DNA of 64,000 nt from Promethearchaeati archaeon (GTDB lineage Archaea > Asgardarchaeota > Heimdallarchaeia > Heimdallarchaeales > Heimdallarchaeaceae), in NCBI GenBank assembly GCA_013166775.1, contig JABLTJ010000003.1, forward strand, positions 128,001 through 192,000, in the 5' to 3' direction. The position numbers and the translations under genes were made by a program. Under the pieces are notes generated by a model. That model saw only the letters and a list, made by a program, of their open reading frames with translations. It did not search any database and was not told the origin of the DNA. Every line of letters begins with the position of its first letter. Position 1 is the first letter of the stretch. Of this stretch, positions 15,298 through 23,031 are shown piece after piece.

Positions 15298-15999
15298 ATG
15301 AAATCTAAAACATTGATTTACATAGTTCTTATAAACATTGGATTATTAATAGTATTTGCCGATGCTCAAGTAACTACTAGTATGCTTTTCAATGATAATG
15401 ACTCATTAGCAGGAAGTTACTGGGTAAGATACCAGTATGAGATTTCTCATTCAGATACAACAATCAGCGTTGACATAAATTCATCTGAACCCATTGACTT
15501 TGGAATCTGTGATAAAGACGAAATGGAAGATTGGCAAAACGGGGAATCTGAGCCCTCATGGTACGTTTATAGAACAAATGTTACATTAAACACAATTACT
15601 GTAACAGTAAATAGAGGTACTTATGATTTTGTACTCATCAATTGGGGAGTTTCAATCAGTTATTATGAAATAACAACTTATGAATCTTATGATCCTTCAT
15701 TTAGTTTTGGAAATAAATTGTATTCAATTATAGGAATTGGGATTACTATATTTGTTGTAATAGGAATAATTGCATTTGTTAGATCAAAAAGGAGAAGAAG
15801 AACACCTGTTCAATATCAAACTCAAGTTGGGTCTTATCAACCATTCACACAACAGCCTTCAGAATATCAACCCCCTTCAAGCGAGCAAACAGTATTTGAA
15901 GCTAAACCCAAAGGCCTTCAAATTTGCCCGAATTGTGGTGCTGATGAAGAAATATCAGCAGCATTCTGTACAAATTGTGGTGGTAAACTAGATAACTAA
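15298..15999 (+). CDS. Single-pass membrane protein with extracellular beta domain and cytoplasmic zinc ribbon
   Basis: Signal peptide, TM followed by RSKRRRR, Q/P-rich linker, CPNC-x10-CTNC. Confidence 0.8.
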   Translation: MKSKTLIYIVLINIGLLIVFADAQVTTSMLFNDNDSLAGSYWVRYQYEISHSDTTISVDINSSEPIDFGICDKDEMEDWQNGESEPSWYVYRTNVTLNTITVTVNRGTYDFVLINWGVSISYYEITTYESYDPSFSFGNKLYSIIGIGITIFVVIGIIAFVRSKRRRRTPVQYQTQVGSYQPFTQQPSEYQPPSSEQTVFEAKPKGLQICPNCGADEEISAAFCTNCGGKLDN

Positions 16000-16118: not shown

Positions 16119-16883
16119 GTGATAAAAATCACTTCAGAAAAAAATGAAGTCTCTTTAGTTGCAGAAATGATTAAAGAATCAGAGTATCTTGTAGTTTTTA
16201 CAGGAGCAGGTATAAGTACTGAATCAGGTTTAGCAGATTTCAGAGGAAAAAATGGTCTCTGGACAAGGAGGGATAAAGGCTTACCTCCTCCAAAATCGAA
16301 ACATTTCGATGAAGTGGAACCAAATCCTGCTCATCTAGCATTAGTTGAGCTGCAAAATCAAGGAAGAATGAAGTTTCTAATTTCGCAGAATGTTGACAAT
16401 CTTCACTTACAATCAGGAATCAAGTTAAATCAAATCTCAGAACTACACGGTAATTATAAATTAGTTAAATGCCTGAAATGTGATTCAAGATTTAGCAGAG
16501 ATGAAGTTGGTTGGATACGAGATATTCATGGAAGAGGTTCAAGAAAAGAACCTCCACAGTCAAACCAACCCATCTGTAAGAAATGCCAAGGACGTCTGAT
16601 ATCTTCCGTGGTGGATTTCAATGATCCCATGCCGGAAAAAGAAGTAGAGCTAGCAAAATACCACTCACTTGAATGTGATTTAATGATTGTAGTAGGTTCC
16701 AGTCTTTCTGTTTTTCCTGCAGCTAATTATCCAAAACTAGCTAAAGACAATGGCGCAAAACTAATTATAATCAACACAGATCCTACAAGATTAGACCACT
16801 TAGCAGATTTGCATATCAGAGAAAAAGCGGGGGAATTTCTCCTAAAGCTCATTAAAGAACTAGAAAAACGTCTTAAATCTTAA
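16119..16883 (+). CDS. NAD-dependent protein deacylase, Sir2 family (SIRT6/class IV-like)
   Basis: GAGISTESG.DFRG, SQNVDNLH, ELHGN, CxxC...CxxC zinc site, GSSL, IIIN. Confidence 0.95.
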   Translation: MIKITSEKNEVSLVAEMIKESEYLVVFTGAGISTESGLADFRGKNGLWTRRDKGLPPPKSKHFDEVEPNPAHLALVELQNQGRMKFLISQNVDNLHLQSGIKLNQISELHGNYKLVKCLKCDSRFSRDEVGWIRDIHGRGSRKEPPQSNQPICKKCQGRLISSVVDFNDPMPEKEVELAKYHSLECDLMIVVGSSLSVFPAANYPKLAKDNGAKLIIINTDPTRLDHLADLHIREKAGEFLLKLIKELEKRLKS

Positions 16884-16998
16884 TTTCAGAAAAAAAAACT
16901 CACTTATGTAAATTTCAATGATTTTTTAATCTAGAGGAGATTCTTCATACATAGAATACCTATAATTGAATAAGATATAGAAAAAAGAGGTCTAGTAT

Positions 16999-19176
16999 TT
17001 GTCAAATATCTCAGCTAAGGAAATGGAAGTAGTAGAGAGATTCATCAGAATTGGTGAATATTTCGAAGCTTTAGAGTTGATAGATATTATGATAAAATGG
17101 GAGAATCTTGATAATTTGGATCTTCTGAAAGTTAAATTGTATCAGGTAGATATTTTTTTAGATTTGGGAAGGTATAAAGAAGGTCTTCAAACAATAGAAA
17201 AAATCATAACTGACAGTCAAAAATCAGGTTTCAGGGAAATAGAACTATCAGCTTTACTAATACAATCAAAACTCCTAATCTATACTGGAAGATTCAAAGA
17301 ATCTCTAGATATTCTCCTTAAAATAGAGCTCAAATTTGATACTAATCTTAAAAGCAAAACAACTTTTTCTAAAACTCTCAAAGTGAGATTCTTAAGACTA
17401 AAAGGAATATGTTGCAGAGCAACAGGAGATAATGAATCAGCTGAATCCTCCATGATTGAAAGTCTAAGAATTGCTGAAGAATTAAAGAACGAATTAGAAG
17501 TTTCAAAAACGCTTGACAGACTAGCAATGCTGCTTCACCCAAAGGATACTAAAGAAGCGCTAAAATTATTAAAAAGAAGTTTACTCATTAGAAAGGAAAT
17601 CGGAAATAAATATTTCCTAGGTCAAACTATGAACAGATTAGGTATAGTTTATCTTAGAAAAGGAATGCTAGATGAATCATTAGCATATTATATTCGGGGT
17701 TTGGAGTATACGAAATCGTATGAAAATAAAGATTTTCAAGCGATTATCAATATGAATATAGGAACTATCTATAAGAATCAAGGAAAATTAAACAAATCAT
17801 TAGAAAATTATATCAAGAGTCTTAATCTTTCAAGAGAAGTAGATAACAAAAATATGATATCAGCTTCACTCTACAATATCTCAGCAATATATCGTCAAAG
17901 AGGGGAATTAAACAGAGCTTTAAAGTATCAAGAAGAATGTTTAGTTGAATTTAAGCACCTAAATTATCCCAATGGAATATCTGCTTCATTACACAATATA
18001 GGGATTATCAATTATCACAAAGGAAATCTTGAGAAAGCAGATAGTTTTTTCAAAAGGAGCTTAAGTATTAGAGAAGAAGCAAAGAATCATGTGGGTACAG
18101 CTGCTTCAGCTTTTTATTTGATTCAAATATCCTTAGATAAAGGATTACTAGATGACACAAAACATTATCTAAGAAAATTAGAGTTTATTAAAAATAAAAT
18201 CGAGCATAAGCTTGTGAGTCAACAGTATTCTATAGCTGAAGCATTATTACTGAAGGATAGTGCTAGAATTCCAAAGAAAGCGAAAGCAGAAGAACTTCTA
18301 AGGAATGTAATTAAGGACGATATCATAGATCATGAGATAACAACACTAGCATATCTCCTTTTAAGTGATCTCCTTCTTGAAGAACTAAAGTTAACTGGAG
18401 AAAATGAAGTTTTAGAAGAAATAAAAACTTTAACAGACCAGCTTTTCGAGGTGTCGAAAAATCAACAATCATCATCTTTAATGGCGGAAACTTTGTGGCT
18501 TAAATCTCAACTCTTCCTTATCAGTATGGAAATGAATGAAGCAAAACATCTTTTGACTCAAGCACAACTAATAGCTGAAGAAAAGGATTTGAAAAGATTA
18601 GCTTTGAAGATTTCAACTGAATATGATAAACTTATCAATCAAATGAATAAATGGCAAACATTAATGAAACAAGATGTTCCATTAACAGAAAGAATAGCAA
18701 TAGCTGATATCGATAACCTTCTAATTAGAATGATAAAAAGAGAAGAGATCACTCTTCTTGAACATGAAATTGAAGATCCAGTCTTTTTAGTGATTCTCAA
18801 TAAAGATGGGCAAACATTATTTACTCATAGATTCTCAACTCTTTCAAAACTAGATGGAGCTCTTATTGGAGGTTTTATTGCAGCAATCAATTCTTTTGCT
18901 TCAGAGATACTTAAAGCTCCTGGAAACATAGAAAGGATAAAATATCAAGAGTACAATCTAATAATCAAAGCTCATGAAAAAATGCTTTTCACCTATGTTT
19001 ACAAAGGACAATCTTATTCTTCTTTGAATAAACTAAATAATTTTGTAGAAATCATTAAAACTACTAAATTAGTTTGGGAAGCATTAAATGAAGCAGTTGA
19101 GAGACCATCTACTCTAAATGAAATTATAGAAACCACTTTAATTAAAAAAGCTGATCAGATATTCGTGACAAATTAG
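16999..19176 (+). CDS. Tetratricopeptide repeat protein with C-terminal longin-like domain
   Basis: About 40-aa TPR repeats (NIG.IY...G.L..AL.Y). C-terminal LVILNKDG..LF...LIGGFIAAINSFASE pattern. Confidence 0.85.
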   Translation: MSNISAKEMEVVERFIRIGEYFEALELIDIMIKWENLDNLDLLKVKLYQVDIFLDLGRYKEGLQTIEKIITDSQKSGFREIELSALLIQSKLLIYTGRFKESLDILLKIELKFDTNLKSKTTFSKTLKVRFLRLKGICCRATGDNESAESSMIESLRIAEELKNELEVSKTLDRLAMLLHPKDTKEALKLLKRSLLIRKEIGNKYFLGQTMNRLGIVYLRKGMLDESLAYYIRGLEYTKSYENKDFQAIINMNIGTIYKNQGKLNKSLENYIKSLNLSREVDNKNMISASLYNISAIYRQRGELNRALKYQEECLVEFKHLNYPNGISASLHNIGIINYHKGNLEKADSFFKRSLSIREEAKNHVGTAASAFYLIQISLDKGLLDDTKHYLRKLEFIKNKIEHKLVSQQYSIAEALLLKDSARIPKKAKAEELLRNVIKDDIIDHEITTLAYLLLSDLLLEELKLTGENEVLEEIKTLTDQLFEVSKNQQSSSLMAETLWLKSQLFLISMEMNEAKHLLTQAQLIAEEKDLKRLALKISTEYDKLINQMNKWQTLMKQDVPLTERIAIADIDNLLIRMIKREEITLLEHEIEDPVFLVILNKDGQTLFTHRFSTLSKLDGALIGGFIAAINSFASEILKAPGNIERIKYQEYNLIIKAHEKMLFTYVYKGQSYSSLNKLNNFVEIIKTTKLVWEALNEAVERPSTLNEIIETTLIKKADQIFVTN

Positions 19177-19189
19177 TAGTTAACTAATT

Positions 19190-20284
19190 CTATCTCCATT
19201 CTACATAAACAGATTCTATCTTTTCTGGTAGATCAATGTTTTTCAGATTGAATATATCTAAGGATAATCTTTTTGGGAAAAAGATGAATTTAGCTTTCTT
19301 GAGAGGTTTAGAATCGAAATAAGGAATGTAAGGCGTTTGAATACCTGCCCAACCGATTTTTTTAGCTTCGAAGCACAATCCTTTTGCTAAGTCAGATGCT
19401 TCTTTTGAAGACAATCTGTGTATATGTACAGCATCTAACCAACCAAATGGAGTTTGGTTACCAAAACCTGCTAGGACGAATTCCCAAGCAAAAATAAAAC
19501 CATTTATTTTACCAATATCATTTTCATGTACAACACAAACTACATTCGGATTATTTAGCATCCACTTGAGATCCTCATAATTAGGAACAATCGAAATTTG
19601 GTTTCTTTCAGCGAAATCTCCAATGAGCTCGAATATTTGGTCAATATCGTTTTTCTGATATCTTCTGACAGATGAACTTTTCGATTCTCTTACTTCTTGT
19701 AATAATTTGAAAACTAGCTTTTCGTACCACTTTAATTTTACAACGGAAGCTGCTATTTTTGCATCAAAAATTCTAATAACATACTTAGTAAGATAAAAAG
19801 CTCTTCTCATTGGAATATTGGTCTCTCTTGCAACAGCTTCTGCTGTATCAATCCCTCTTTGTTCTGGTTCAAAAAGAGCGAAACCACAATCATAACCTGC
19901 TGCTAGTCCCATTTCCAGCATTTTCTTTCCCATTGATTTTGCTAGACCTTGTCTCTGATGATCAGAACGAACAGAAATCCAGGAAGGAATTGCTGATTTA
20001 TACACTTTTTCGTTTACAGCTAGTTTTCGAGGAATCAAACCAAAAAAACCAACTAATTCATTTGTTGGTTTATGTATTACTCTAATAAAGAAGTCTTTAT
20101 CGATAGAAGGACCTCCAAAAATTGTTTTAAAAGTCTGTTCTGTGAAAATAATACTAGCTCCAACTAGCTGTGCATCTGCATCAGCAAGAAAAGCTGTAGT
20201 AATCAGTTTTGAATATTCTTCAATATTGCTCTCGTCTAGGGTAAATTGCTCAATACTGTATTCCGATTCTTCTTTCTTATTCAT
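19190..20284 (-). CDS. Tandem GNAT acyltransferase, N-myristoyltransferase-like fold
   Basis: Acyl-CoA motif V..DHQRQGLA. Second GNAT half starts at [16 protein letters not shown]. Collinear with NMT by eye. Confidence 0.7.
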   Translation of the reverse strand: [364 protein letters not shown]

Positions 20285-20431
20285 ATAATCACTTGAAATT
20301 ACTATTTATGATGATTTGCAGATTCGTTTCTTTAATTGCTGTTTTATATAAATCTTACTTGAATTTATGAGAGTAGGGAAACATGAAATTTTGAAATTAG
20401 TTTTTTAAACAAGTTATTCAGTTTATTTTAT

Positions 20432-22426
20432 ATGATTGATTTCAAAGATTTAGTAAGAAAGAATTATTCCATTGTAATTCTATTCACAATACTCTTCCTT
20501 TTCTTCCTACAAGCTCTCTCTGACATAGTCGAGAGAATTTATGCTTTTGCTTTACTTAACCTGGAACCAGATGAGAATATTCTAGGACTTTTATTCTTCT
20601 TATCACCAGTAGTTTTGCTTTTTTTTAGAAAGAAATTCCCTGAAATAGCAATGTTAATAGTAGGAGAAATAATGATTATATCTAGACTAATTGAACCTCT
20701 TGTGACTAAGCAAGGAATCTACATCACAGCAGGATTAACAGTAGCAAGTTTTCTAATATTCCTCCCTACTTTTTATGGGAGAACAAAAGATAAGAACAAG
20801 AATATTGGCTTAGATTTGGGTATAAGTCTCGCAATTGCTGTTTCTCTCTCAATTCTTTTCAGAACAATCAACGCTTCAATAGATATCTCTCAATACAAAC
20901 TAGGGCAAATTATAGGATGGATATTAGGTTTAATTGCTTCATTCATTCTATTTGGTTACTTCCTAACAGAAAAAGAGTCAGTAATTAAAGACGAAGAGAT
21001 TGAAATAAAAGCTAGTTTCTGGAAAGTTCTAGGATTAACAATAGGAATTTTTAGTATCTTTGTGATTTTATGGTTCGTTTTCATGAGTCCGACTGTGATA
21101 ACAAGATGGACTGAAGGAGATTATATAGGAATTATAGTTGGAATTCTATCTATGATAGCAATTTCTGTAACAGTAAAACTGTGGAGACCTGATGTAATAA
21201 ATAAAATTAAAACCTGGATGTTATGGGTTTGGAACGGTTTATTCTGTTTGTCACTCACACTAACAGTATTAGTTCATCAGTTGAGATTTCCAGATGATCA
21301 TACTCTTTATCCCATAGTTGCTCCTCAAACTGCATGGTTCCATCAGATTCCCCTAGCACTGATGATTATCAGTTCACCAATAATATACCTTGATTTCCTT
21401 TATTTAACAAGAGAAATCATTACACTAAAACCATCGACTAGAAAACTAGGTGGAGCATTTTTAATAGGTGGATTGTACTTGGTAATTATGCTCTTTTTCC
21501 AGATTCTTCCCAACATATGGGGTTACTTAGAACCTATAAGTCCAGGATTTAGGGACAAATACTGGCTAGCTTTTCTTATTCCAAGTCTTCTAGCAGGTTT
21601 GGCAATAATTCTAGTTAAAAAGGAATCTTTGAATCTTGGAAAATTAAAAAGATCATATAATTCCAAAATTATAACTGTTGTAGTAGTAGGAATGATTTTT
21701 GTGGGAACCTTGGTTGGTGCATTTATAACTGCTCCAAAACCAGACTATTCTGCTGCAGGTAAAACTTCCCTCATAATTATGACATATAATATTCAACAAG
21801 GAGTGAATGTTTCCGGAGATAGAAATTACGATGGACAATTAGAGTTAATCCAAAGCATTGATCCAGATATTATTGGTTTACAGGAATGTGATCCTACAAG
21901 AATATCAGGTGGAAATTTAGATGTTGTAAGATATTTTGCTACTAAATTAAACATGTATTCATATTACGGTCCGAAAACAGTCACCAACACGTATGGATGC
22001 GCAATTCTTTCAAAATTTCCTATATCAAATGCGGAATCATTTTTCATGTTCAGTGATGAAGAACAAATAGGTTCATCACAAGTTCAGATTACTGTAGGTA
22101 GTTCTATCTTCAATGTATTTGTAAATCATCCTTCAGGGGACGAAGACATAACCACTGTTTATCAACAGCAAGAGATTTTGAGCAGGACAATAGGTCTTTC
22201 AAACATCATTTTTATGGGTGATTTCAATTTTAGACCTTATTCACAGGAATACAATCTGACTTTAGATGCAGGATTAGAAGATTCTTGGTCTCTAAAATGG
22301 GGAATACCTGCGGATGATAGAATAGATCACATCTTTCTTAGTACAGGAAGAATAGTTCTTGGTGCACAGTATATTGAAGAAGGACAATCTGATCATCCCG
22401 CATATTGGATAGAAATGCAACTGTAG
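20432..22426 (+). CDS. Polytopic membrane protein with C-terminal EEP (endonuclease/exonuclease/phosphatase) domain, Cwh43/PGAP2IP-like
   Basis: About 13 TMs, then MTYNI, GLQE, GDFN, IDHIF and SDH EEP motifs. Confidence 0.85.
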   Translation: MIDFKDLVRKNYSIVILFTILFLFFLQALSDIVERIYAFALLNLEPDENILGLLFFLSPVVLLFFRKKFPEIAMLIVGEIMIISRLIEPLVTKQGIYITAGLTVASFLIFLPTFYGRTKDKNKNIGLDLGISLAIAVSLSILFRTINASIDISQYKLGQIIGWILGLIASFILFGYFLTEKESVIKDEEIEIKASFWKVLGLTIGIFSIFVILWFVFMSPTVITRWTEGDYIGIIVGILSMIAISVTVKLWRPDVINKIKTWMLWVWNGLFCLSLTLTVLVHQLRFPDDHTLYPIVAPQTAWFHQIPLALMIISSPIIYLDFLYLTREIITLKPSTRKLGGAFLIGGLYLVIMLFFQILPNIWGYLEPISPGFRDKYWLAFLIPSLLAGLAIILVKKESLNLGKLKRSYNSKIITVVVVGMIFVGTLVGAFITAPKPDYSAAGKTSLIIMTYNIQQGVNVSGDRNYDGQLELIQSIDPDIIGLQECDPTRISGGNLDVVRYFATKLNMYSYYGPKTVTNTYGCAILSKFPISNAESFFMFSDEEQIGSSQVQITVGSSIFNVFVNHPSGDEDITTVYQQQEILSRTIGLSNIIFMGDFNFRPYSQEYNLTLDAGLEDSWSLKWGIPADDRIDHIFLSTGRIVLGAQYIEEGQSDHPAYWIEMQL

Positions 22427-22530: not shown

Positions 22531-23031
22531 GTGGATTTTATAATTCGAACTATGAAGAAGAACGACTCTTCAGATAAGGAGTTTTTTGACTATACGAATT
22601 TCGAATCTTATAAAACAACGTTAAAGGATTCAGAAAAATACTCAGAAGAAGAGTTACATAAGAAATTTCAGCAATTTGAAGAAGATGATCCATTAGATAT
22701 CAATGAATCAAAACACTCTGTTTTCATTTTGGAAACATATAATGGAATAAAAGTAGGTTTAATTTGGATAACTAATCGAGAACCATTTTGGAGATTCAAC
22801 GATCAACTTGCATGGATTTACAATTTACATACTATTCCTGAGTTCAGAAAACAAGGATTAGCGAGGTTATTAATGATTAGAGCAGAAGAATGGGCAGTTG
22901 ATCAAAATTTGAATTCAATTGCATTGCATGTGTTGAATGATAATACATTTGCAAGAAATTTGTATGAATCTTTGGGATATGAGTTAGTGGTAACTCACAA
23001 TACAAGTTGTTTTTATGAGAAAAAAGTGTAA
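22531..23031 (+). CDS. GNAT N-acetyltransferase
   Basis: PEFRKQGLA motif and N..ARNLYESLGY. Confidence 0.9.
   Translation: MDFIIRTMKKNDSSDKEFFDYTNFESYKTTLKDSEKYSEEELHKKFQQFEEDDPLDINESKHSVFILETYNGIKVGLIWITNREPFWRFNDQLAWIYNLHTIPEFRKQGLARLLMIRAEEWAVDQNLNSIALHVLNDNTFARNLYESLGYELVVTHNTSCFYEKKV

Follow-up and report, generated by a model that had tools for sequence, protein, structure and literature searches.

N-myristoylation is regarded as a hallmark of eukaryotes. Eukaryotic N-myristoyltransferases (NMTs; EC 2.3.1.97; Pfam families PF01233 and PF02799) contain two GNAT lobes in a single chain, and their C-terminal carboxylate serves as the catalytic base. Other eukaryotic and archaeal proteins relevant here are the compact sirtuins SIRT6 and Sir2Af2 from Archaeoglobus fulgidus, the longin-domain proteins of the AP sigma, VAMP7/Ykt6 and TRAPP Sedlin/Bet5 types, and the polytopic membrane proteins PGAP2IP and yeast Cwh43. 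Relatives of all four are encoded side by side in a 64,000-nucleotide stretch of DNA from a Heimdall-group Asgard archaeon (genome G000, contig C107, positions 128001-192000; G+C content of approximately 32%), which is referred to here as the window. An earlier note had proposed that the four genes form a system for writing and erasing fatty acylation of proteins and anchoring them to membranes. The comparison of Asgard genomes indicates instead, with a probability of about 0.72, that the four genes act separately and stand next to each other through inherited local gene order in one Heimdallarchaeaceae-type genus (g1). The genes sit together only in that genus, and therefore the locus provides no support for a shared protein-lipidation system. 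The features of the locus are the following, with short names of the genes in brackets:

16119-16883, + strand: putative sirtuin, Sir2-family NAD-dependent deacylase of the SIRT6/Sir2Af2 type, 254 residues (SIRT)
16999-19176, + strand: TPR-longin protein, 725 residues, with TPR repeats at approximately 200-530, a helical linker and a predicted longin-fold domain at approximately 590-725 (TPR)
19190-20284, - strand: NMT-like tandem-GNAT putative acyltransferase, 364 residues, convergent with the TPR-longin gene (NMTL)
20285-20431, no strand: intergenic region of 147 bp that separates the divergent NMT-like and EEP genes
20432-22426, + strand: polytopic membrane protein, 664 residues, with a transmembrane part at 1-431 and an EEP phosphoesterase domain at 450-664 (EEP)

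The re-derived coordinates, strands and 147-bp divergent gap agree with the arrangement described in the earlier note. The sirtuin and TPR-longin genes are co-oriented and separated by 115 bp, the convergent stop codons of the TPR-longin and NMT-like genes lie 13 bp apart, and the divergent starts of the NMT-like and EEP genes are 147 bp from each other. The four genes do not constitute an operon, as the NMT-like gene runs on the opposite strand, towards the TPR-longin gene and away from the EEP gene, which leaves the sirtuin and TPR-longin genes as the only co-oriented neighbors. The genome contains three sirtuin, two NMT-like, five EEP and four TPR-longin genes. Because of these copy numbers, and because acylation was chosen as the common theme after the fact, chance clustering is not decidable by a simple probability calculation, and the comparative data are the real test.

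The search for related loci with the NMT-like protein as a single query returned only the contig of genome G006, and the closest related contig is labeled Candidatus Heimdallarchaeota archaeon RS_9_76. The whole region is syntenic across the genus of the window, from the genes for a HAD hydrolase, a CN hydrolase and a DNA methylase on one side to that for an M28 peptidase on the other, and the synteny also includes DinB. The flanking genes, which are unrelated to the four, are at least as well kept in position. The core of the locus differs among the genomes of the genus:

SIRT-TPR-NMTL-EEP: G000 and G006
SIRT-TPR-EEP, on one strand, without NMTL: G021 and G003
SIRT-TPR-NMTL, without EEP: G011, G004 and G022
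SIRT-EEP...DinB-NMTL, without TPR: G024, G013 and G012
SIRT-NMTL: G017
EEP-NMTL-SIRT: G014

Since the composition of the core varies, the locus can do without each of the supposed partners in at least one genome of the genus. The divergent arrangement of the NMT-like and EEP genes with the 147-bp spacing recurs in G006 and on contig C32 of G014. The second NMT-like gene of G000 (contig C16) and a second EEP gene (contig C47) are located apart from each other and from any sirtuin gene. The tree of NMT-like genes (loci L023-L036 and L048-L065) contains at least four deep clades, which are interleaved with copies from family f6. Different genomes within one genus nevertheless have clade A, C or D copies in one shared syntenic slot, which suggests that paralogues arose early and were lost differentially, or that copies were replaced at the locus. 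The possible causes include an ancestral region with multiple paralogues that were lost differentially, replacement at the locus, and weak local selection.

The earlier note had suggested looking for a conserved neighborhood across Asgard genomes; the linkage was found only in genus g1 and, more loosely, in the sister genus g10, in which 8 kb separate the sirtuin and NMT-like genes. Two closed genomes of genus g11 carry an NMT-like pseudogene at a distance of 258-284 kb from the sirtuin gene, yet the unrelated flanking block still adjoins this pseudogene, a pattern characteristic of mere synteny. At the 17 NMT-like loci from genus g12 and families f6, f26 and f10, no homologue of SIRT, TPR or EEP lies within approximately 10 kb, and such neighbors are also missing from the contigs with NMT-like genes of Lokiarchaeota (two), Gerdarchaeota (one) and metagenomes (two). 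The sirtuin and EEP genes were located on separate contigs in every genome compared outside the genus. The phyletic patterns of the families are discordant: among 251 Asgard genomes, 33 contain the NMT-like gene, 86 the sirtuin gene and 76 a full-length EEP homologue. Family f13 has the sirtuin in 43 of 54 genomes, EEP in 25 and the NMT-like gene in none, and all six genomes of family f22 encode the sirtuin and none the NMT-like protein.

Several observations weigh against inherited gene order as the whole explanation. The exact 147-bp spacer is present in G014 even though its NMT-like copy is only 48% identical. Within the genus, clades A, C and D are each located directly beside a TPR, SIRT or EEP gene, and their sister copies in f6 are unlinked, so that the shared slot could reflect local selection for linkage beyond common descent. 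The SIRT, TPR and EEP genes of G021 and G003 are adjacent and co-oriented, and could be co-transcribed. The last observation is also an argument for a link restricted to the co-oriented genes, in which the sirtuin and TPR-longin genes, together with EEP where it is adjacent, would form a transcription unit, the TPR-longin protein would target or regulate the deacylase, and the NMT-like gene would be an unrelated insertion on the opposite strand. The 115-bp gap on the same strand and the adjacency of SIRT and TPR in G000, G006, G011, G004, G022 and G016 agree with such a unit, which we nevertheless consider unlikely: SIRT and EEP occur without TPR between them in G024, G013, G012, G018 and G009, they are not even on the same contig in the genomes compared outside the genus, and the two to ten TPR-longin copies per genome make chance adjacency easier.

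A further alternative is a functional module of all four genes specific to the genus. The NMT-like protein would act as a writer of fatty acylation on N-terminal or lysine amines of proteins, the sirtuin as an eraser of fatty acyl groups on lysine, the TPR-longin protein would gather enzymes and substrates at the membrane, and the EEP protein would remodel the lipid anchor. Such a module appears very improbable, despite the fact that all four family assignments hold, that the genes remain within a few kb of each other in most genomes of the genus in spite of internal rearrangements, and that NMT-like copies from different clades occupy the slot beside TPR, SIRT or EEP. The gene orientations are opposed, unrelated flanks are at least as conserved in position as the supposed partners, each of which is absent from the locus in some genome, and beyond the genus the genes are unlinked, except for the 8-kb distance in g10, and discordantly distributed, with many Asgard lineages containing this type of sirtuin and no detected NMT-like gene. 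Furthermore, the Asgard Arf-like GTPases that were tested lack Gly2 or recognizable myristoylation sites (PMC11914678; bioRxiv 10.1101/2024.02.28.582541).

The most far-reaching proposal is that the NMT-like protein is a true protein fatty-acyltransferase, which together with the sirtuin, TPR-longin and EEP proteins constitutes a lineage-specific reversible system for lipidation and membrane anchoring. If true, the system would be a prokaryotic forerunner of the eukaryotic control of myristoylation and defatty-acylation, and an archaeal module of this kind would bear directly on the origin of membrane targeting in eukaryogenesis. We give this proposal very little credence, as no evidence ties the four genes into one pathway. 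Much of what the earlier note had listed as speaking against its own proposal is what the comparison produced. Linkage is not conserved in related genomes, and the grouping with ordinary bacterial families was seen in part: the nearest relatives of the EEP protein are mostly bacterial, and by profile score the sirtuin family resembles the ordinary archaeal Sir2Af2 about as much as SIRT6. The present data thus remove the gene cluster as evidence for such a lipidation system.

The data show the folds and relationships of the proteins, the order of their genes and the spread of the families among genomes. Based on the preferred reading of four separately acting genes, the roles of the individual proteins can be proposed, with catalytic activities that we infer in every case. 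The sirtuin would be a compact enzyme of the SIRT6/Sir2Af2 type, widespread in Asgard archaea, that uses NAD to deacylate lysine residues. The TPR-longin protein, one of several paralogues, is probably a scaffold for protein-protein interactions. The NMT-like enzyme most likely moves an acyl group from acyl-CoA to an amine, with its own C-terminal carboxylate as the base, and the membrane EEP protein most likely acts on a phosphodiester of a membrane lipid.

The assignment of the tandem GNAT as NMT-like, made in the earlier note, is borne out by several lines of evidence. The protein matches the Pfam families Acetyltransf_9 and NMT PF01233, the latter corresponding to the N-terminal lobe of NMTs (31.2 bits, cut-off 25), and its C-terminal lobe scores below the cut-off of PF02799 (17.7 against 27.9 bits, E = 0.0031). 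The single-sequence search of the PDB returned only NMTs (5e-5). An exhaustive search of 1.84 billion representative sequences identified 80 relatives. The profile of all full-length relatives (A1), 28 of the 48 members of which match PF01233, detected NMTs in the PDB at 3e-34. However, A1 is contaminated by one bona fide NMT (P0067), and the PDB search was therefore repeated with a profile restricted to the ten most closely related archaeal members (A2), on which our conclusions rest. All 35 matches of A2 are NMTs, the best at 1.6e-13. The AlphaFold2 (AF2) model of the protein has a pLDDT of 95.7 and a pTM of 0.92, and the top 50 structures identified with it by Foldseek in the PDB are all NMTs (E = 2e-23, TM-scores of 0.75-0.79, approximately 370 aligned columns). 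As judged from the profiles and the predicted structure, the tandem GNAT is a true but distant relative of NMTs.

The Asgard protein shares with eukaryotic NMTs the two GNAT lobes in one chain, the full-length NMT fold and a chain that stops at a fixed register. The C-terminal residue is arginine in 120 of 122 full-length members of the family, preceded by tryptophan in 117 of the 122, and the register is constant; distant relatives terminate at the same position. The fixed end is consistent with an NMT-style carboxylate base, by analogy with the eukaryotic enzymes. In contrast to the Trp-Arg end of the Asgard family, NMTs end with a hydrophobic residue or glutamine. Further differences from eukaryotic NMTs are the sequence identity of only 13-19% in structural alignments, the C-terminal lobe that remains below the Pfam cut-off, the archaeal host and the patchy distribution. 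The 364-residue protein also lacks the basic N-terminal extension that mediates ribosome binding and begins at the catalytic core, with profile positions 11-18 aligned to NMT residues 55-82 of the crystallized constructs.

NCBIfam contains no model for the NMT-like protein, and members of the family are named "GNAT family N-acetyltransferase" or hypothetical in public records. Members are encoded by Asgard archaea of the Heimdall, Gerd and Loki types, and the patchy distribution is concentrated in three families; one distant relative is from Sigynarchaeota. Asgard archaea thus carry a small, conserved and mostly Asgard family of NMT-fold putative acyltransferases. In the literature that was searchable we found no paper linking NMT to Asgard archaea, and an earlier description may exist. 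As the cultured Candidatus Lokiarchaeum ossiferum encodes a member of the family (P0184), experiments to find the substrate are now feasible. The gene has decayed in the two closed g11 genomes, in which the family is therefore dispensable. Of the two decayed copies (L066, G065:C1:1011617-1012693; L067, G109:C1:1138313-1141232), one is interrupted by two TAG and one TAA stop codons within the matching stretch, and the other is broken into two pieces.

The contaminating protein P0067, encoded by JGI metagenomic contigs of approximately 1.2 kb, matches both NMT families of Pfam (PF01233 at 2.6e-42 and PF02799 at 1.2e-29) and is a bona fide NMT by this measure. Its 364 residues make it no longer than the archaeal proteins, and the N-terminal extension is missing here as well. 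P0067 could be a bridge between the archaeal family and NMTs, or a compact eukaryotic NMT.

The sirtuin was claimed to be SIRT6-like, and its best PDB match is indeed human SIRT6 (3.5e-51), with Sir2Af2 at 5.7e-45. The protein matches Pfam SIR2 at 3e-33 and contains the GAGIS motif at residue 29, the catalytic HGN motif at 110 and the zinc-binding CxxC pairs at 118 and 153. Residues 12-248 align to residues 35-269 of SIRT6 in a single, almost gapless stretch, and the Pfam match skips positions 27-56 of the SIR2 model, which correspond to the helical module. Judged by these alignments, the sirtuin lacks the helical module of the cofactor-binding loop, as does SIRT6. The compact Sir2 core without this module, the catalytic histidine and the zinc cysteines are shared with both SIRT6 and Sir2Af2, whereas the C-terminal extension of SIRT6 is missing. 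The family profile calculated from 17 Asgard orthologues (A5) scores SIRT6 at 213.6 bits, Sir2Af2 at 208.9, Sir2Af1 at 170.6 and SIRT7 at 143; with SIRT6 and Sir2Af2 almost equal and SIRT7 far lower, the designation "SIRT6-like" is true but not exclusive, and the scores do not amount to membership in class IV. The family is spread across Asgard lineages. Removal of long-chain acyl groups is also reported for Sir2Af1 and Sir2Af2 (PMC8339906, citing Ringel 2014), and the capacity for fatty deacylation thus does not single out SIRT6.

The TPR-longin protein matches the Pfam families TPR_12 (2.8e-36) and TPR_MalT (2.5e-18), and has no Pfam longin match. In the AF2 model, residues 560-725 have the bb-a-bbb-aa topology of longin-domain proteins (b, β-strand; a, α-helix; pLDDT of 78). 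The top Foldseek matches of the C-terminal approximately 140 residues are AP sigma subunits, the longin domains of VAMP7/Ykt6, and TRAPP subunits, with E-values down to 9e-6 and TM-scores up to 0.60/0.70, and the structural neighbors of the C-terminus in the Atlas are Sybindin/Sedlin and Longin. The label "TPR-longin" is therefore correct at the level of the predicted fold. Unlike in the described longin-domain proteins, the domain is joined to a long TPR array in a multicopy Asgard family (640-830 residues, two to ten copies in each genome of this Heimdall family), and the locus contains no obvious GTPase partner. The paralogues in G000 are:

C7:50133-50570, strand not given: TPR-longin paralogue
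C62:43048-43593, strand not given: TPR-longin paralogue
C103:62845-63282, strand not given: TPR-longin paralogue

The Atlas also contains Thorarchaeota proteins in which the same longin-type domain shares a chain with an Arf/Ras-like GTPase. In G024, a divergent TPR-longin paralogue has a D-clade NMT-like copy as its neighbor. We treated this pairing as chance because of the number of TPR-longin copies per genome; in G013, G012, G005 and G010 the contigs with the divergent paralogue lack an NMT-like gene, and the other D-clade copies (G021 and G014) have no TPR-longin neighbor.

The membrane protein was described as Cwh43-like, and its EEP domain matches Exo_endo_phos_PGAP2IP PF23226 at 8e-22 and Exo_endo_phos PF03372 at 2.8e-21; the score of PF23226 (78.1 bits, cut-off 27) is nearly equal to that of the generic EEP model (76.7 bits). 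Hydropathy peaks predict approximately 12-13 transmembrane segments, and the catalytic motifs LQE483, GDFN596, DHI632 and SDH653 are intact. By sequence, the protein is a polytopic EEP protein of the PGAP2IP/Cwh43 type, with which it shares the C-terminal PF23226-type domain and the number of transmembrane segments ahead of it. It differs from PGAP2IP and Cwh43 in the transmembrane region, as residues 1-440 have no Pfam match at E ≤ 10, including the PGAP2IP transmembrane families PF23022 and PF23021 and Frag1 PF10277. The closest Atlas clusters also differ, since they are mostly bacterial (Chloroflexota) proteins with transmembrane and EEP parts; eukaryotic PGAP2IP/Cwh43 clusters are among the neighbors, with PGAP2IP at rank 7 and a score of 0.96. 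Asgard archaea are not known to have GPI anchors.

The neighbors of NMT-like genes outside the four-gene core differ between lineages. In Candidatus Lokiarchaeum ossiferum (L045:9191-12156, CP163304.1), the NMT-like gene is located between a co-oriented upstream gene for a Ras/Arf-like GTPase and a downstream gene for a CDP-alcohol phosphatidyltransferase. The small GTPase was dropped as a candidate partner, as its sequence starts with MTASK and thus has no Gly2, and a GTPase gene next to the NMT-like gene recurs at none of the other loci. The distant NMT-like gene of a metagenomic contig (L041:1-10634, P0010; 40% identity) lies amid three tandem M28 peptidase genes, and its further neighbors encode a RuBisCO large-subunit-like protein, an acyl-CoA ligase-like protein and an M24 peptidase of the Xaa-Pro type. 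An M28 peptidase gene is often the direct neighbor of the NMT-like gene in the genus of the window, where we attribute it to synteny at the genus level only. A link of the peptidases to N-terminal processing is possible, with two contexts in its favor, of which L041 is a single case.

Additional genes next to the locus are the following:

22531-23031, + strand: small single-domain GNAT, 166 residues (Acetyltransf_1, 4.4e-16)
15298-15999, + strand: zinc-ribbon protein with C-terminal PF13248/PF13240
11658-12404, + strand: zinc-ribbon protein with C-terminal PF13248/PF13240

The gene for the small GNAT follows the EEP gene in the same orientation after a gap of 104 bp, and a homologue of it directly adjoins the NMT-like gene in G017 (L036). 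The two zinc-ribbon genes flank the block of HAD hydrolase, CN hydrolase and methylase genes. One of the two proteins has a weak match to an ABC-2 membrane-like family, and both remain part of the syntenic block throughout the family.

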